Both the position numbers and the translations under genes were made by a program. A model generated the notes under the pieces. It saw nothing but the letters and a program-made list of their open reading frames with translations. It searched no databases and had not been told where the DNA came from. Shown here piece by piece: positions 8,174 to 23,609 of a DNA stretch of 64,000 nt; the first letter of the stretch is position 1; the number at the start of each line of letters is the position of its first letter. Source of the DNA: an uncultured Gammaproteobacteria bacterium (GTDB lineage: Bacteria; Patescibacteriota; Microgenomatia; CAYQLK01); assembly GCA_964445355.1 (NCBI GenBank), contig CAYUKQ010000001.1, positions 12,277 through 76,276 on the forward strand, written 5' to 3'.

Positions 8174-9829
8174 ATGGAAAACATTTTTTCACAATTGGCT
8201 GTCGCGCTCAGTTTATCTTCATTAATTGGATTCGTTGTACTAAAATTCAAACTTCCTCTCGTAGTCGCTTACCTGCTTGCGGGAGTTGTTATTTCGATCT
8301 TGAGTATAATTGACCCCGGTCATTCCCCGGCATTTGAAGCCCTGCCAGAGATCGGTATTGCCTTTGTTCTTTTTTTGATCGGTATGGAATTAGATTTAAG
8401 AGAGGTCAGGTCTCTCGGTATACCGGTTATTGTTTCAGCGGTTGGGCAGGTTTTTATTACAACCCTTGCCGGATTTGTAATTGCGACTTCTTTAGGTTTT
8501 GAACCGGGAGTAAGTCTTTACCTTGGTCTTGGGCTGGCATTTTCTTCGACGGTGGTTGTGGTTAAGATGTTACTGGAAAAGCGTGAATTAACCTCACTGC
8601 ACGGCAAACTATCGATCGGTATTTTGCTCATCGAAGACATGATTGCAATTGTTGTATTAATGCTGATTTCCGTCAGCGACTCCGCACTTGGTCTGGGACT
8701 TCAGCAGAGCCTGCCGATTCTAACTCTCATACTTAAGGCAATTGGTCTGTTTGTACTTACATTCCTTCTTTCGAGGTTTGTACTTGAGCGCATTTTTGAC
8801 GCTGTGGCAAAATCGGTTGAACTTCTTTTTCTCACAGCCATTACCTGGTGTTTTGTCTTTACTACACTTGCAGTGGTGTCGGGGTTTTCAGTCGTTATTG
8901 GTGCTTTTTTGGCAGGCGTTGCGCTGGCTTCATCGCCGTATCATTTGCAGATCCAGGGGAAAATCAAACCACTTAGAGACTTTTTCTTAACATTATTCTT
9001 TGTTTACCTTGGTTTGCAGGCCAATATTACCGATGTGTTTAATTATTGGCCAACAATTCTTATTTTTACGGTGTTCGCTTTAGTTATTAAGCCAATTATT
9101 TATATTTTTCTCCTTGGTGCTTTTGGTTTTAGAAAACACACAATGTTTCAGTCGGGCCTCAGTCTTTCTCAAATCTCTGAATTTTCTCTGGTTGTACTTC
9201 TTGTGGGAGTCCAAGCCGGTATTGCCTCACAGGAATCACTTTCCGTTATGGCAGCAGTTGCCATTCTGTCAATAATATTTTCATCAACACTAATTAGTAA
9301 TTCCAAACTGATCTACCGTCTTGTTGGCAAGTTTGTTGTTATTTTTGAGCATCATTCAAAGACGCATATTTTTGAATCTCACACCGATCAAGAGCTAGAG
9401 GATCATGTGGTTATTATCGGCGCTGATCAGGTCGGCGGTCCAGTCGTTAATTATCTTCATCGCGAAAAAATCCCCATAATCGTTCTAGATTTTAATCCTC
9501 ACATTGTTCAGGAATACCGCCAGAGAGGTGTTAATATAATTTATGGTGACGCTGGCGATCCTGAAATACTCGAAGGATTGCAGCTTAACAAATCACGGTT
9601 GATCATATCCACGGCCAATGATTTGACCGATAACGAAATGATTATTCTTGAAGCAAAAAAGAAAAAATCACAAGCAGCGATCGTCGTCAGAGCAAGCGAC
9701 AAAGAACACGCACAAATTTTAACGGAGCTCGGTGCCGATTATGTTATCCTGCCGGAACAGGTTTCCGGGGATTTTTTGCTAACACACCTTAAGACCCACT
9801 GGCCAAAAGTGAAATTTCCGAAGATTTAA
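8174..9829 (+). CDS. CPA2-family monovalent cation:proton antiporter with C-terminal RCK/TrkA-N domain (KefB-like)
   Basis: About 12 TM helices followed by a Rossmann segment VVIIGADQVGGPVVNYL. 551 aa. Confidence 0.8.
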   Translation: MENIFSQLAVALSLSSLIGFVVLKFKLPLVVAYLLAGVVISILSIIDPGHSPAFEALPEIGIAFVLFLIGMELDLREVRSLGIPVIVSAVGQVFITTLAGFVIATSLGFEPGVSLYLGLGLAFSSTVVVVKMLLEKRELTSLHGKLSIGILLIEDMIAIVVLMLISVSDSALGLGLQQSLPILTLILKAIGLFVLTFLLSRFVLERIFDAVAKSVELLFLTAITWCFVFTTLAVVSGFSVVIGAFLAGVALASSPYHLQIQGKIKPLRDFFLTLFFVYLGLQANITDVFNYWPTILIFTVFALVIKPIIYIFLLGAFGFRKHTMFQSGLSLSQISEFSLVVLLVGVQAGIASQESLSVMAAVAILSIIFSSTLISNSKLIYRLVGKFVVIFEHHSKTHIFESHTDQELEDHVVIIGADQVGGPVVNYLHREKIPIIVLDFNPHIVQEYRQRGVNIIYGDAGDPEILEGLQLNKSRLIISTANDLTDNEMIILEAKKKKSQAAIVVRASDKEHAQILTELGADYVILPEQVSGDFLLTHLKTHWPKVKFPKI

Positions 9830-9831
9830 TT

Positions 9832-10413
9832 ATGTCCAAAAAAAAACTAGCGATACTGACACTTATTTTATTTGCCTTACTGGTAGGAGCAGCATTTTAT
9901 TTCCGCCTTAAAGAAGCTCGTCTTGATATCAATGAGCCGGATTCTAATCAAAACACTGCAACGGCAACTGATCCAAGTGAAAAAGATGTCTCGGTTCAGA
10001 CATCTACCGATACAAGCGGGAAAAATATTTTTTCATCAATCGACAGTAAGCTTCAGGTGATCTATCCCGCCTCATGGCAGCTTACTAACCTACCCAGATC
10101 TAATCCCGATATTCTTCAGTCAATTACTCTTCAATCAGCAGGAATATTGGCAACCGTTGATATTTCAGAGCAGTATGACAGGATCATTGATAATTTCATT
10201 AACTGTCAGATAAATACCTGTGAAGAAAAAATTATCAACACTAAGCCGGTTATTATTGAGAATTCTCCGCAGGATACACCCAAGATTATTTCACTAACAA
10301 CTATTTTTAATCGCAAGGTCTACAGAGTCACCTTCAATATTGAAAGCGGTACCAATCAAGCGCAAAATACCCAAGCCGTTCAGGACGTAATTTCCACGAT
10401 CAAGTATTTTTAG
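9832..10413 (+). CDS. Hypothetical secreted/membrane-anchored protein
   Basis: N-terminal TM/signal (LAILTLILFALLVGAAFY). No recognisable domain. Start 3 nt after upstream stop. Confidence 0.5.
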   Translation: MSKKKLAILTLILFALLVGAAFYFRLKEARLDINEPDSNQNTATATDPSEKDVSVQTSTDTSGKNIFSSIDSKLQVIYPASWQLTNLPRSNPDILQSITLQSAGILATVDISEQYDRIIDNFINCQINTCEEKIINTKPVIIENSPQDTPKIISLTTIFNRKVYRVTFNIESGTNQAQNTQAVQDVISTIKYF

Positions 10414-10695: not shown

Positions 10696-11880
10696 ATGTC
10701 GCCAGAAAAAAAAGATTTCGTTTCCGAATGGGTCAAAACCCCCAGATCTGCAGAGGAATTCACTCAAAATTTTGAAAAGTCGCGTGTGGTTCATGGTCGA
10801 CCGTTAGCACACGCATACCAAAAACTCGTCGAAATTGAAGGTTTAAATAAAACCGACCTTCTTTGTCTGGGGATCGGGACCGCCAAGGTCGAAGAGATGA
10901 TGAGGCTTGATTCCGCTCGTATAACCGCGATCGAATTTAATGAGTCCTATATTGCTAAAGCCAAAACTCGTCTTCCCAGGGCGAAATTTTTACAGGGAAG
11001 AATGGAAGATTTAATTCAGTCCGTCGATCCGTCATCAATTTGCCTCAGTCAGGAATCGCTTGATTGTATTCCTCCTGCTCAACTTCCCGAGCTGGTCGGC
11101 AGGATCAAACAAAAGACCGGTAAGCTGGTTGCTATTCAGACTTACAGTCCTGATCCGGAATTTTACGGATCCTCCTGGTCTGGAGCAGATCACGCCATTG
11201 GTGGTCTGGGTCTTGAAGGTGCAACAATACAACAGCAAAAAGTTTTAGAAACCAAATTGAACAATCAAGGTGTTCAATCGACGCTAGATAACCCTCGAAG
11301 AATGCTTAGTGAATTACAAAAATATGTTGAAAATATTATTGGAGCAAGATTCAGTATCGATATTGTAGAGGCACTTGAACACATTGGTTACCCATTTACT
11401 GATCTTCCCAAAGAGGCAGGGCTTCGCAGTCTGCCAGCTCAAGCCTCGCTTTTACTCAATCACACTGAATTACAAGTTGAACACCTTAAAAACGTTTTAG
11501 GTAGACATCTAGCGAATCGCCATCGAGAGGCTGGTCTTTATATTGGTATTGACACCACTCATCGCTTCCTCCAATTGTTATTAGGAACATTTCGAATTGA
11601 TCTGTTTCAACAGCTTTTAGTCCGAGCTTGCCAAGAAGCAGGTTACTGCGACATACGCTTAAAATCTATCAATGCTTCTGAAAAAAGGACCCTAGAACCT
11701 TCTGAATTAGTTGCTCAGTTTAACCGTTCATTGGATGTAATTAAGAAAAAACCAGTTTTCCGACGGATCAGGCCTGACGATAAGTATAGTCGTGCCTTTG
11801 TTGGCTCGCCAATTATTCTCATGGAACCATCTGACAATACTTACTCAATAGCCAGAGTACCTTACTTATCGGCGGCGTGA
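10696..11880 (+). CDS. Hypothetical protein (possible Rossmann/methyltransferase-like N-terminal region)
   Basis: 394-aa ORF. Weak glycine-rich segment LLCLGIGTAKVEE. No confident domain assignment. Confidence 0.45.
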   Translation: MSPEKKDFVSEWVKTPRSAEEFTQNFEKSRVVHGRPLAHAYQKLVEIEGLNKTDLLCLGIGTAKVEEMMRLDSARITAIEFNESYIAKAKTRLPRAKFLQGRMEDLIQSVDPSSICLSQESLDCIPPAQLPELVGRIKQKTGKLVAIQTYSPDPEFYGSSWSGADHAIGGLGLEGATIQQQKVLETKLNNQGVQSTLDNPRRMLSELQKYVENIIGARFSIDIVEALEHIGYPFTDLPKEAGLRSLPAQASLLLNHTELQVEHLKNVLGRHLANRHREAGLYIGIDTTHRFLQLLLGTFRIDLFQQLLVRACQEAGYCDIRLKSINASEKRTLEPSELVAQFNRSLDVIKKKPVFRRIRPDDKYSRAFVGSPIILMEPSDNTYSIARVPYLSAA

Positions 11881-19317: not shown

Positions 19318-19366
19318 AAACAATCATTGACAATCCGTAGCTTTTTGCTACAATCCTATCTCAACA

Positions 19367-19618
19367 ATGAAAGACAAACCAAGGTTGTGTTTGTTAAATA
19401 TTCATAAGTCCACGGGTTCCCGAGCAGTCGCTCGGGTTTTTTTTGATCAAATTTCCCTTCAATCGCTCAAAAACAGCAAAGAGTTTGAGCCGTTTAACCC
19501 CCAGGAACTGCAGTCAATTTTGAGTCTTAATTTCCAAAACCTATCTGCCTTTAGTAGTTCCAACTCATCCAGTTGCGCAGCTTGTTCTCACAGTGGCTGT
19601 CACGGTAATTGCAGATAA
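19367..19618 (+). CDS. Putative RiPP (TOMM/LAP-type) precursor peptide A1. C-terminal core SAFSSSNSSSCAACSHSGCHGNCR. True start uncertain.
   Basis: ORF ends in a Cys/Ser-rich tail typical of azol(in)e precursor cores. Leader shares an N[SA]KEF[ED] motif with the downstream peptide. The terminator hairpin at 19419-19444 lies inside this ORF and no ATG/GTG follows it in frame (only a TTG 32 codons from the end). Start may be internal, or expression may depend on read-through. Confidence 0.4.
   Translation: MKDKPRLCLLNIHKSTGSRAVARVFFDQISLQSLKNSKEFEPFNPQELQSILSLNFQNLSAFSSSNSSSCAACSHSGCHGNCR
19419..19444 (+). terminator. Rho-independent terminator (downstream of surface-protein gene, upstream of or within the RiPP precursor region)
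   Basis: cccgagc-agtc-gctcggg perfect 7-bp stem followed by T8. Confidence 0.75.
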
Positions 19619-19645: not shown

Positions 19646-19789
19646 GTGAACAAGACTAATAATAACGCTAAAGAATTCGACGAAGTCGTTTCTGAGGTTA
19701 AACTGTCCCAAGAAGAGATTAGTGATGCTACCAGTAGTGCATCTGCACAAGGATCATGTGGTCACACAGGTTCGAATTCAGGTAGATAA
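19646..19789 (+). CDS. Putative RiPP (TOMM/LAP-type) precursor peptide A2 (47 aa): VNKTNNNAKEFDEVVSEVKLSQEEISDATSSASAQGSCGHTGSNSGR
   Basis: Missed by the 60-aa ORF track. GTG start 8 nt after a strong SD (AAGGAGGTG). Acidic leader followed by a Ser/Thr/Cys/Gly-rich core. Lies immediately upstream of YcaO and SagB-type genes. Confidence 0.6.
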   Translation: MNKTNNNAKEFDEVVSEVKLSQEEISDATSSASAQGSCGHTGSNSGR

Positions 19790-19858
19790 AACTCCTTCTC
19801 TCATAGCTAGCTGAGTAATCAAGTGTGAGCTCACACAAATAAAAACAGGATAGTATTT

Positions 19859-21151
19859 ATGTCAAAACAAAGCTTGATCGAAAGCAACTTAGAGTTGCTA
19901 TATCAAAAATGCGTTTCTGCCCACGAAAAAACAAAATTTATATCAACCGTTCATCGGAGCTTTTTCTACAACGATGAACCCAAGCTGTATACGTTCATTT
20001 TGAACAGTAAAAACTCGTCCAAAAAATTCCGTACCAACGCCAGCGGCTCGGCCTGGGATGAAAAACTCGCTTTTATTAAAGGCTATATTGAAATGATAGA
20101 AAGATACGCACTGATCCCTTCAGATCAAGACCTCGATCATTTAGTTCTCTCGTCCGAGACTGGATTGCCTAAGGCAATAAAACTTAGCAAATTCATGAAA
20201 TTCTCACATAGCCAAATGATCGACAAGTTTTTTGCCCGAAAAGTCGCGACCGAGAATGACCCTTTATACTGGACTGAAGCTATTGATTTATGTGCCCGCA
20301 AAACCGTATATATTCCGGCTCAAACTGTTTTTTGTCCGTTCGGAAAAAAAGAAAAAATCATTCGCACGCCAATTTCAACGGGCGCATCAGCGGGTTTGGA
20401 CAAAAATTCAACAATAACCAGGGCAATTTTTGAAGTTCTTGAAAGAGACACGTTTATTTCATCCTATTTGGGTCGCCTTTCAGGTACGATAATTAAGATA
20501 AAAAACCCAAAAGGAGTGATCAAAGATTTACTGGACGAATTTAGCTTTTATTTACTCGAACCAACAATTATCAGATTGGACAACGATTATCATATTCCCG
20601 TCATACTGACAATTCTTACGGATCTGACTAAAAACAAGCCGGTCATTACCTTCGGACTCAAGTGTCATCCTGATCTGAACAGGGCGATTCAGGGTAGTTT
20701 GGAGGAATCATTTCATACTCGCGGATGGATGCGTGACGAATTGGCAAAATCCGATACTGTCTACATTAATTCACTAATCAAAAATATCGAACACACTTAC
20801 GAGCTCAAAGATCGCGGACTTATCTGGTCTCAACCTTTCGTTCTCAAAAACGTTGATTTTTGGCTTAATAACAAAAAAACATTTAATCTATCTCTCAAAG
20901 CAAGTTATCCAAAAATTCCATTAAATACTCTCCTTAAAAAGTTACAAGCAATCGGATTTGATATTTATCTCAAAGAACTAACTGATCCGGAGATCGCCAA
21001 ACTTGGTTTTTACGCCTGTAAGGTCATCATACCCCAAGCACAACCTCTTTACCTGGAAGAGGATTTTCAATATTTGGACACCAGCCGTATTGAAAAGATC
21101 GCAAAACATAAGATCACCAAGCTTAATACATTTTTACAACCCTTCCTATGA
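19859..21151 (+). CDS. YcaO-domain cyclodehydratase (SagD/TOMM D-protein-like), stand-alone
   Basis: N-terminal NASGSAWDEKLAFIKGYIEMIERYA and central PISTGASAGLDKNSTITRAIFEVLERDTF match the YcaO signatures (ASGxG...ERY and SNG-AxG...E--ERD). 430 aa. No fused E1-like domain. Confidence 0.75.
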   Translation: MSKQSLIESNLELLYQKCVSAHEKTKFISTVHRSFFYNDEPKLYTFILNSKNSSKKFRTNASGSAWDEKLAFIKGYIEMIERYALIPSDQDLDHLVLSSETGLPKAIKLSKFMKFSHSQMIDKFFARKVATENDPLYWTEAIDLCARKTVYIPAQTVFCPFGKKEKIIRTPISTGASAGLDKNSTITRAIFEVLERDTFISSYLGRLSGTIIKIKNPKGVIKDLLDEFSFYLLEPTIIRLDNDYHIPVILTILTDLTKNKPVITFGLKCHPDLNRAIQGSLEESFHTRGWMRDELAKSDTVYINSLIKNIEHTYELKDRGLIWSQPFVLKNVDFWLNNKKTFNLSLKASYPKIPLNTLLKKLQAIGFDIYLKELTDPEIAKLGFYACKVIIPQAQPLYLEEDFQYLDTSRIEKIAKHKITKLNTFLQPFL

Positions 21152-21861
21152 AAGATTATATTTCTGAGTTTTTTATCCAAACCGGGACTCAGTCCGATAA
21201 TGCACCCAAGCCTATCCCATATGATAAATGGCCGATTGCCTGGAAAACAATTCATTACAAGAACTACCCCAGATTTCCGCGTATCGGAATTACAAAATTC
21301 AAACCAGTCTCAGAGATCGAAAAAATCATTTCCAGAAGACGAAGTAATCGAAATACCAATAGGATATTATCCGCTGGCAAATTAAAGAAAATCTTGCATT
21401 TTGCAAACTATGGCGTATCAATTGATGGGCGAAGCTATCGTGCGTACCCCTCAGGGGGAGCCAGATATCCGCTGGAAATTTATCTATTTATTAATAATGT
21501 AAAAGGCCTAAAAAAGGGTCTTTATCATTATGCTTTCGAAACAAATTGCTTAGAATTACTTCAGGATAAAGACATGACAGCAGAATTAAAAGACTTGCTG
21601 GTAGATGGCTGGGTTGCCGACTCAGCTGTTTTTTTGGTCATTACCGCCGTTCCCGGCCGAAGTGCGATTAAATATGCAAACAAGTCATTAAGATATCTCT
21701 TTATTGAAGCAGGCCACTTAGGTCAAAATATATTATTGCTGGCAGAAAAATACAAAGTTAATACCTGTCCGATCGGTGGTTTTTATGAAGATAAGCTCAA
21801 TAAACTCCTTCGAATTGACAGGACCAGCGAGAAAGCAATATATTCAATTGCTATAGGTTGA
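21148..21861 (+). CDS. SagB/McbC-type FMN-dependent dehydrogenase (nitroreductase superfamily) of TOMM pathways
   Basis: RSYRAYPSGGARYPLEIYLFI matches the SagB-family R-x-Y-P-S-x-G-A-x-YP-x-E-x-Y motif. 4-nt overlap (ATGA) with the ycaO stop. Confidence 0.75.
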   Translation: MKDYISEFFIQTGTQSDNAPKPIPYDKWPIAWKTIHYKNYPRFPRIGITKFKPVSEIEKIISRRRSNRNTNRILSAGKLKKILHFANYGVSIDGRSYRAYPSGGARYPLEIYLFINNVKGLKKGLYHYAFETNCLELLQDKDMTAELKDLLVDGWVADSAVFLVITAVPGRSAIKYANKSLRYLFIEAGHLGQNILLLAEKYKVNTCPIGGFYEDKLNKLLRIDRTSEKAIYSIAIG

Positions 21862-23609
21862 TTATGAGTAATGAAAAATTAAGGCAAAATTCACCAGAAA
21901 CGAAAATGCTCGAAAAAGAACCATCAAAAGCCAGACTGACAGCAACCGATCTGAGTATTAGTGTCGGCACCAGAGACTTAATAGTTGATGGCAACTTCTC
22001 AATTGGCACATCAGAAAGACTAGCCTTGATTGGTCGTAATGGCAGCGGAAAAACTTCGCTTCTCGACTTGGTTGCCGCTGTTTCCACGGGCGATCAGCCC
22101 CCTGAATATCTCGACGTAAAGGGGGACATTTCTCTGACCCAAGCCAAGGTAGGCTATCTAAGACAAGATATTCAAGTCGCCTATGATGGTACGGTCAAGG
22201 GGTACATAGATCAGTGTGCACAAGATGTAGCTGCAGTCATCGCAAACTACGATGCTCTTACCGCTAGACTGGCTGACGGCGAGACCGGCGACGAGCTAAT
22301 GGATGAATACGGCAAGGCCTTGGATGAGATGTCGCAGCTGGACGCTTGGGACTTCCCTCGCAAAAGAGAAATGATTCTGCAAGGCCTTGGTCTGACAGCA
22401 GATTACTTGGATCGGGATATGACCGAGGTAAGCGGGGGAGAAGCGACAAAAGTATCTTTAGCGGGAATTTTGGTTGCTTCACCTAATCTAATTTTACTCG
22501 ACGAACCGACCAATAATCTCGATCCTGAGAGCGTGAAATTTTTTGAAGAATGGGTCAAAACTACACAAACTTCACTGCTGTTAGTTTCCCACGATCGGGA
22601 ATTTTTAGACGAAACTGTAACAGAAATACTTGAAATAGATGAAGATACAAAACACCTGATCAGATTCGGAGGTAACTATTCTTTTTATAAACAGAAAAAA
22701 CAAGAGATGTTTGACGCACAGATGCGGTCGTATGAAGAACAACAAAAAAAACGTAAACAACTAGAAGATTCAGCAAAGCAGCTGAAACAAGAGGCGCAAA
22801 GATTTGAAGGTATGTCCAACGATTCTTTTTATCGGGCAAAGGGGGGAGGGCTTGCAAAAAGAGCAAAATCTCAACTGGAGCGAATCGAGCGCGAGTTAAA
22901 TGACATTCCCGAGCCAGTACTCCCTAAACGGCCATCCTTTGAGGTAAAAGAACCACAAATTTCAGACGGGACAGTCATGGTGGCTCAAGATCTTTCGTAT
23001 CGTTATCCAAACAACTCCGTTGATACTTTTTCTAAGGTCAATTTTTCTATTCGTGGAGGTGAAAGGGTTGGAATTGTGGGCGCAAACGGTGCCGGTAAAA
23101 GTACACTCCTTCGAGTTTTAATCGGCAACCTTCCTTCTACAGGCGGGAAAGTAGAGCAATTCAAAGGACTCAAAGTCGGATATTTACCTCAAACAACTGA
23201 CAGGCTTAAACCTGATCAGAACATCATCGACTACATTCGCCGAAAAGCCTCTGTCTCCGTCGAAGACGCATATAAAGCGCTTTCCAGAATGCTACTTGAT
23301 GATTCGGCGCACAAATCCGTATCTGATTTTAGTTTTGGAGAGTTTCGCCGTATCGAGCTAGTAGCACTTTTTGCCTCTAATCCTGACGTATTAGTTCTTG
23401 ATGAGCCGACTAATCATTTAGATATTTATACGATCGAAACTCTTGAAGATGCGCTCACTAGATATCACGGGACGGTTATAACTGTTACACACGATGAAAG
23501 ATTCTTAAAAGATCTAAACATCGACAAAATCATTGTTGTCGGAAAAGGCGGGTTAGTCGGCATGCACAAAGTAGAAGATTCAAAAGATGTCGCTGGATAC
23601 TTTACTTAA
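21858..23609 (+). CDS. ABC-F family ATPase (two tandem NBDs, no TMD), translationally coupled to the RiPP enzymes
   Basis: Walker A GRNGSGKTSLL and GANGAGKSTLL. Signature VSGGEATKVSLA. Walker B LLDEPTNNLD / VLDEPTNHLD. Lys/Gln/Glu-rich inter-domain linker (KKQEMFDAQMRSYEEQQKKRKQLEDSAKQLKQEAQRFEG). ATGA overlap with sagB-like stop. Confidence 0.75.
   Translation: MIMSNEKLRQNSPETKMLEKEPSKARLTATDLSISVGTRDLIVDGNFSIGTSERLALIGRNGSGKTSLLDLVAAVSTGDQPPEYLDVKGDISLTQAKVGYLRQDIQVAYDGTVKGYIDQCAQDVAAVIANYDALTARLADGETGDELMDEYGKALDEMSQLDAWDFPRKREMILQGLGLTADYLDRDMTEVSGGEATKVSLAGILVASPNLILLDEPTNNLDPESVKFFEEWVKTTQTSLLLVSHDREFLDETVTEILEIDEDTKHLIRFGGNYSFYKQKKQEMFDAQMRSYEEQQKKRKQLEDSAKQLKQEAQRFEGMSNDSFYRAKGGGLAKRAKSQLERIERELNDIPEPVLPKRPSFEVKEPQISDGTVMVAQDLSYRYPNNSVDTFSKVNFSIRGGERVGIVGANGAGKSTLLRVLIGNLPSTGGKVEQFKGLKVGYLPQTTDRLKPDQNIIDYIRRKASVSVEDAYKALSRMLLDDSAHKSVSDFSFGEFRRIELVALFASNPDVLVLDEPTNHLDIYTIETLEDALTRYHGTVITVTHDERFLKDLNIDKIIVVGKGGLVGMHKVEDSKDVAGYFT

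Follow-up and report, generated by a model that had tools for sequence, protein, structure and literature searches.

An ABC-F gene in a minimal azole-peptide cluster

The window analysed here is a 64-kb stretch of metagenome-assembled DNA (GenBank assembly GCA_964445355.1, contig CAYUKQ010000001.1, positions 12,277 to 76,276), and its subject is a gene for an ABC-F ATPase (21864..23609, plus strand) that lies directly behind the genes of a ribosomally synthesised and post-translationally modified peptide (RiPP). Upstream of it, on the same strand, two precursor peptides are encoded: precursor A (19367..19618), of 83 amino acids (aa) with the C-terminal end ...SSNSSSCAACSHSGCHGNCR, and precursor B (19646..19789), of 47 aa with the C-terminal end ...SSASAQGSCGHTGSNSGR, which begins with a GTG start codon after a strong Shine-Dalgarno sequence, AAAGGAGGTG. 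Both are conserved in the homologous loci L001 and L002 (loci are numbered with the prefix L and proteins with P), and both have a C-terminus rich in Cys, Ser and Gly. The open reading frame (ORF) of precursor A is 83 aa long in these two loci as well, with a conserved C-terminus and a variable middle. The precursors are followed by a YcaO cyclodehydratase (19859..21151, plus strand, 430 aa; PF02624 at 2.7e-39, 135.8 bits) and a SagB-type FMN dehydrogenase (21148..21861, plus strand, 237 aa), with a 4-nt overlap between its start and the YcaO stop. SagB passes the model TIGR03605 (130.7 bits, cut-off 78.4) and also matches PF00881, while YcaO scores 180 bits on TIGR03604, the SagD family model specific for thiazole/oxazole-modified microcins, against a cut-off of 219.

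The YcaO protein has just about 64 aa N-terminal of its domain, and no gene for an E1-like or ThiF-like partner was called in or beside the cluster in any of the seven genomic contexts described below. YcaO appears to be a stand-alone azole former, partnered only by a short SagB (203-248 aa). Neither an exporter nor a protease was seen in the window cluster, and no second ABC ATPase occurs anywhere in the 64-kb window; the rest of it is ordinary chromosomal housekeeping DNA. Judged by its gene content, the locus is a minimal linear azole-peptide (LAP) cluster consisting of precursors, YcaO, SagB and the ABC-F. The upstream pilin-like 286-aa and 704-aa genes were considered as part of the module and dropped, the similarly sized neighbours in L006, L018 and L032 not being homologous. 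As a separate observation, the C-terminus of YcaO is conserved as LQPFL or PHFFL in the window and related loci.

The nearest named relatives of the window SecA and YcaO proteins come from Woykebacteria, Daviesbacteria, Curtissbacteria, Levybacteria and "Microgenomates", and the organism is therefore a bacterium of the Candidate Phyla Radiation (CPR, Patescibacteria) of the Microgenomates type. The metagenome-assembled genomes holding L010 and L011 are labelled "uncultured Gammaproteobacteria bacterium"; they look mislabelled, given that the named SecA and YcaO relatives are Microgenomates-group CPR bacteria.

A soluble ABC-F protein with two complete ATPase sites

The ABC-F gene lies in a continuous ORF without interruption (21858..23609, plus strand). 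Translation from the ATG at 21864 gives 581 aa and from an alternative TTG at 21858 gives 583 aa; the public record (P0001, 581 aa) uses the ATG, which is also kept in L001, L002 and L011. The protein matches two PF00005 (ABC_tran) domains and the interdomain linker domain ABC_tran_Xtn at an E-value of 2e-45 (2.1e-08 for the linker domain, PF12848). Among NCBIfam models it scores best on NF000355, "ribosomal protection-like ABC-F", with 407 bits where the cut-off is 380. Across 72 homologues, the Walker A, Q-loop, signature, Walker B Asp-Glu and H-loop residues of both nucleotide-binding domains (NBDs) are invariant (G57/K63, Q101, S190/G192, D213/E214 and H243 in NBD1; G406/K412, Q443, S490/G492, D513/E514 and H543 in NBD2).

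An AlphaFold2 model built from the family alignment (mean predicted local distance difference test score, 88) has two NBDs, an arm hairpin (helices at aa 120-137 and 143-158) and a helical hairpin linker. When this model was compared with the Protein Data Bank (PDB) by Foldseek, the 25 best matches were all ABC-F proteins, the majority from ribosome-bound structures. The housekeeping factor EttA was match number 2, and this fold search did not tell antibiotic resistance (ARE) ABC-Fs from housekeeping ones. By sequence, three of the top four PDB matches were VmlR2, YheS and Sal(B), all of them bacterial ABC-Fs associated with the ribosome and two of the three AREs. No transmembrane-type hydrophobic segment was detected in the protein, the highest Kyte-Doolittle average over 19 residues being 1.58, inside the NBD core. 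This agrees with the absence of a membrane domain that the initial annotation had stated for ABC-F proteins. The window protein is a soluble ABC-F ATPase with two complete NBDs, an arm and a helical linker, and by analogy with its structural relatives it would be expected to bind at the ribosomal E site.

The ABC-F gene stays with YcaO and SagB in seven genomic contexts

We examined the genomic contexts of ABC-F homologues at falling identity, and that of the YcaO of L035. The arrangement of precursor(s), YcaO, SagB and ABC-F occurs in seven different contexts, namely the window type (shared by L001-L005, L010 and L011), L006, L007, L018, L031, L032 and L035, which fall into three groups and come from several distantly related, ultra-small CPR bacteria. 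Besides the window's own assembly, the complete metagenome-assembled genomes GCA_964418515.1, GCA_964430475.1 and GCA_964610125.1 carry the cluster. The order and strand of YcaO, SagB and ABC-F are the same in all seven, down to identities with the window proteins of 38% for the ABC-F and 33% for YcaO, while the flanking genes differ in every context and none is common to different contexts. Among the homologues of at least 50% identity, all eight proteins whose context was checked (P0001 to P0010), representing every one of these contexts except L035, are encoded behind YcaO and SagB on the same strand. In L035, a YcaO of 38% identity is followed by SagB and by an ABC-F of another ABC-F subclade, with a C39-like cysteine peptidase (11072-11779, ECGPAS motif) inserted between the two. 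A contig scan with the ABC-F as single query gave two close relatives and otherwise only distant Firmicutes ABC-Fs, and a metagenome scan with YcaO gave one partial locus.

Each locus is accompanied by homologous precursors sharing the core G-x-C-x-N-S-G-N-G-C-T-G-S-C-N-H-S-S-K, as seen in L001, L002, L006, L007, L018, L031, L032 and L035; the core in L035 (...QGSCSHTGSNSSAC), upstream of the YcaO gene, is homologous to that of precursor B. In L032, the precursor is placed after the ABC-F gene, which is therefore internal to the cluster. The pairwise identities of YcaO, SagB and ABC-F resolve the same three groups and are correlated with one another (r = 0.86-0.87). Overall, this conservation strongly supports the ABC-F gene as an integral and probably co-expressed part of the cluster, in the pattern of a functional operon rather than of chance adjacency, and on the question whether the gene is a chance neighbour of the RiPP genes it speaks for linkage.

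The junction between SagB and ABC-F is tight in the window, although one detail of it had been misread. The initial annotation took the two genes to be coupled by an ATGA overlap of start and stop; here, however, the SagB stop is the TGA at 21859-21861, and the conserved ATG at 21864 begins 2 nt beyond it. Only the TTG at 21858 overlaps the stop, as TTGA, and the ATGA present in the sequence is not at this junction. True 4-nt ATGA overlaps of SagB and ABC-F are found in the homologous loci L006, L031 and L032, and the gap in group A loci is 1-2 nt.

Two further observations concern these loci. Several precursors have Gly-Gly or Gly-x ahead of the core, which suggests double-glycine leader cleavage. 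In L031, lasso-peptide-like genes (a PqqD-like protein of 103 aa, a 427-aa Asn_synthase homologue and a 56-aa ORF; 123-2646) lie directly upstream of the LAP cluster, so that two RiPP systems stand side by side.

The ABC-F belongs to a clade of its own with a long interdomain linker

The initial annotation had left room for a housekeeping EttA-like factor beside the cluster. On the two EttA models, the window ABC-F scored 274.5 bits (NF008775, cut-off 599) and 277 bits (TIGR03719, cut-off 806.75), and across the equivalog models for EttA, Uup, YbiT-type and YheS-type proteins it reached 221-277 bits against cut-offs of 599-936. Its score on NF000355 is about 130 bits above those on the EttA and Uup models; likewise, all sampled members of its clade score best on NF000355 (373-407 bits, about 85-150 above the EttA and Uup models). 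The models for the named ARE subfamilies (Vga, Msr, Lsa, Sal, OptrA, CplR and the producer type) gave 137-277 bits against cut-offs of 680-1450, and none was passed. Furthermore, we placed the protein in a neighbour-joining tree that took in EttA, Uup, YbiT and YheS of Escherichia coli as well as Msr(A), Msr(E), OptrA, PoxtA, Lsa(E) and a Streptomyces virginiae plasmid ABC-F. In this tree, the window ABC-F lies within a wide metagenomic clade, found largely in Microgenomates-like CPR metagenome-assembled genomes, that is set apart from the four E. coli paralogues with 97% bootstrap support, and the cluster-linked groups A and B form one clade (78% bootstrap). By model scores and tree alike, the protein is not an orthologue of EttA, Uup, YbiT or YheS, and by model scores it joins no named ARE subfamily.

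The linker between the two NBDs, the equivalent of the PtIM (P-site tRNA interaction motif) or antibiotic resistance domain (ARD), is encoded at 22677..22904 (plus strand) and is modelled by AlphaFold2 as two helices (aa 272-316 and 321-347) with the tip MSND-SFYRAKGG. Measured between the first H-loop and the second Walker A, its length is 164 aa in the window protein and 162-165 aa in its clade, compared with 140-143 aa in EttA, Uup, YbiT, YheS and OptrA, 151 aa in PoxtA and 172-176 aa in Msr and Lsa. The window linker exceeds that of EttA by about 20-24 aa, with the surplus residues at the tip of the hairpin, and it aligns nearly without gaps with the ARDs of Sal(B) and VmlR. The ARE-type role considered by the initial annotation is matched by a linker of ARE length. 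Such an extension is typical of ARE1-5 and allows the linker to reach the drug site (PMC6723617).

Putative control elements

A promoter-like site, TTGACA-16-TG-TACAAT (19327..19354, plus strand), stands before the cluster; it agrees with the consensus at 11 of 12 positions, has an extended -10 element, and both hexamers are kept in L001 and L002. Promoter-like matches are no commoner in this region than in shuffled sequence, so that the case for this site is one of conservation only. About 60 nt past it, within the 5' part of the precursor A ORF, there is a terminator-like GC-rich hairpin followed by U8 (19419..19444, plus strand); in L001 and L002 its loop varies but its stem does not. No hairpin of this type is present in the group B loci. 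The ORF of precursor A starts about 6 nt past the predicted transcription start. The hairpin may serve as a translation-coupled attenuator for the operon as a whole, the ABC-F gene included.

A second promoter-like site, TTGACA-18-TATATT (21815..21844, plus strand; 11 of 12 consensus positions), lies within the 3' end of sagB, 20 nt ahead of the ABC-F start. Its hexamers and the final 30 nt of sagB are identical in four group A loci, synonymous positions included, and conceivably the ABC-F might be expressed separately from it. A perfect 14-nt palindrome, GTGTGAGCTCACAC (19823..19836), stands between precursor B and YcaO. It is unchanged across the window, L001 and L002, whereas the intergenic DNA around it differs, and it might function as an operator or as an RNA stem governing the ratio of precursor to enzyme.

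Comparison with known systems

ABC-F genes are known from the small-molecule antibiotic clusters of actinomycete producers (OleB, CarA, SrmB, TlrC, LmrC, VarM and Ard1), and these proteins share with the window ABC-F an extended interdomain linker and two intact ATPase sites as well as the location in an antibiotic cluster. The actinomycete clusters make macrolides, lincosamides, streptogramins or nucleosides, whereas the window cluster encodes a ribosomally made azole peptide in a CPR bacterium, and its ABC-F falls outside the producer subfamily (277 bits on the "ABCF_producer" model, cut-off 800). The Firmicutes AREs Sal(B) (PDB 7P48) and VmlR/VmlR2 (6HA8, 8BUU), which are among the best PDB sequence matches, have the arm subdomain in common with the window protein. 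The Sal(B) linker aligns to the window's with two one-residue gaps, and that of VmlR is about 6 aa longer; yet overall identity is only about 25-27%, the tip sequence differs, the Sal family model gives 263 bits against a cut-off of 725, and both are stand-alone resistance genes rather than cluster genes. EttA (E. coli YjjK) has the same fold, arm subdomain and E-site-type architecture, but it differs in the shorter linker, the clade and the model scores given above.

Among LAP clusters, those of klebsazolicin and phazolicin likewise combine YcaO, a dehydrogenase and a precursor rich in Cys, Ser and Gly. In addition, each has a gene for an E1-like partner and one for an export pump (KlpE, PhzE) that provides the immunity route, and neither cluster is known to contain an ABC-F. 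The window cluster, in contrast, has an ABC-F and neither an E1-like partner nor a pump, and the core sequences are unrelated beyond composition. No earlier report of an ABC-F within a YcaO or other RiPP cluster came to light, an absence of evidence in an incompletely covered literature; ABC-F is not mentioned either in a review for which the YcaO clusters of 146,381 genomes were screened for RiPPs that target translation (PMC7136475).

Discussion

The linkage described above suggests that the ABC-F shields the ribosomes of the producer and that the peptide attacks the ribosome. In such a mechanism, the ATP form of the ABC-F would bind the E site of the producer's 70S ribosome, and the helical linker, extended by about 20 aa, would be pushed towards the peptidyl-transferase centre (PTC) and the upper exit tunnel. 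There it would dislodge the cluster's own azole peptide or prevent its binding, as the ARE ABC-Fs of actinomycete producers do with their antibiotics, and the product would then be a translation inhibitor acting at the PTC or in the tunnel. The LAPs klebsazolicin and phazolicin, which bind the ribosomal exit tunnel (PMC6783444, PMC7136475), provide a precedent for this target. Binding to the ribosome, its protection and the peptide's target are what we infer; self-immunity is favoured because neither an exporter nor any other candidate for an immunity gene occurs in the conserved core, and because of the conserved linkage, the co-evolution with YcaO and SagB, the family placement and the long linker. 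We give the reading in which the ABC-F is the self-protection gene of the cluster, acting by ribosome target protection and predicting a peptide that blocks the PTC or upper tunnel, a probability of roughly 0.45.

Several findings weigh against self-immunity, and most of them would suit a resident translation or rescue ABC-F of the lineage, kept in the LAP operon since production needs it. Such a factor might aid the translation of Gly/Ser/Cys-rich precursors, or sense drug-bound ribosomes and signal to cluster expression, as LmrC, a producer ABC-F that is also able to regulate its cluster, sets a precedent for (PMC8546547). The extended linker tip, with the motif F-E-x-x-S-x-D/N-x-F-Y-R-A/S-K-G, is conserved throughout the clade, including members without RiPP neighbours. 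A neighbouring subclade, 45-48% identical to the window ABC-F, is encoded between rplU and rpmA, the genes for ribosomal proteins L21 and L27, in L008 (6461-10025), L009 and L033 (6564-9003; directly between them on the same strand). Neither rplU nor rpmA is found in the 64-kb window. The cluster-linked and rplU/rpmA clades differ at 11 positions, mostly conservative and not concentrated in the linker, and therefore give no sign of functional specialisation. Moreover, the window and L007 proteins are 53% identical both for the ABC-F and for SecA, and this equal divergence fits a vertically inherited resident factor. Linker length, too, is an unreliable ARE marker, since that of OptrA is short and those of unclassified housekeeping ABC-Fs vary (PMC6723617).

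The promoter-proximal hairpin in the first precursor ORF, conserved in group A, would also fit a resident factor with a regulatory role; it is missing from group B, however, and only the L006 precursor is markedly repetitive. The gene order has been held over very deep divergence while all flanks changed, which is unusual for housekeeping neighbours. The initial annotation had held that clear EttA orthology, with synteny beside unrelated genes in related genomes lacking the cluster, would refute an immunity role. Half of this picture was found, and for the neighbouring subclade only: its members at rplU/rpmA are without RiPP genes. On balance, we regard a resident factor as the main rival and as somewhat less probable than self-immunity, though it overlaps with self-immunity in that sequence alone cannot part the rescue of self-poisoned ribosomes from immunity.

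An incidental housekeeping neighbour, placed beside the RiPP genes by shared ancestry and with no functional tie, is improbable. Homologues of 41-48% identity do occur in unrelated contexts, L019 and L020 among them, and much of the linkage could go back to one ancestral arrangement, as groups A and B form one clade, albeit with moderate bootstrap support. Against this stand the seven contexts with unrelated flanks and no other conserved flanking gene, the overlapping or nearly overlapping SagB/ABC-F junctions, the L032 precursor downstream of the ABC-F, and L035, which keeps an ABC-F despite the other subclade and the inserted peptidase. That the ABC-F is an ATPase powering peptide secretion with an unlinked membrane partner is hardly credible: a conserved core without a transporter would leave this role vacant, and some source annotations of relatives read "macrolide transport system ATP-binding/permease protein", yet the protein has the canonical ABC-F architecture of tandem NBDs, helical hairpin and arm with no transmembrane segment, its top structural matches are all ABC-Fs and mostly ribosome-bound, an adjacent permease gene is missing from all seven contexts, and the efflux model for ABC-F proteins has been given up in the literature (PMC6723617).

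Around the unlinked homologues in L019 and L020, small ORFs were considered as RiPP precursors and rejected; they are not precursor-like, and one looks like an artefact overlapping a tRNA. About 370 nt downstream of the gene for the unlinked ABC-F P0026, L020 encodes a SPASM-type radical S-adenosylmethionine protein with a C-terminal Cys cluster (9130-10176). This protein might be part of a further RiPP system, although no precursor was identified.

If self-immunity holds, ABC-F target protection would be widened to include ribosomally made peptides as well as small molecules. Few features predict the target of an antibiotic as well as its self-resistance gene, and an ABC-F in a RiPP cluster would mark a family of peptides from uncultivated bacteria as probable ribosome inhibitors. 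The cluster is tiny, with four or five genes, and is thus amenable to heterologous expression. A wider and more tentative proposal is that several Microgenomates-like CPR lineages make a family of short azole peptides that inhibit the ribosome at the PTC or tunnel, and that these lineages are protected by a previously unclassified ABC-F subfamily, of which the unlinked copies, including those between rplU and rpmA, would be orphan resistance genes against these peptides. On this proposal, no RiPP cluster family before this one would have had an ABC-F as its immunity gene. An immunity role would give a concrete function to an ABC-F clade, largely of CPR bacteria, that now carries generic annotations only. 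Since attachment to host cells is the presumed lifestyle of CPR bacteria, a translation-blocking peptide with a matching immunity protein would bear on how they compete with, or control, their hosts.

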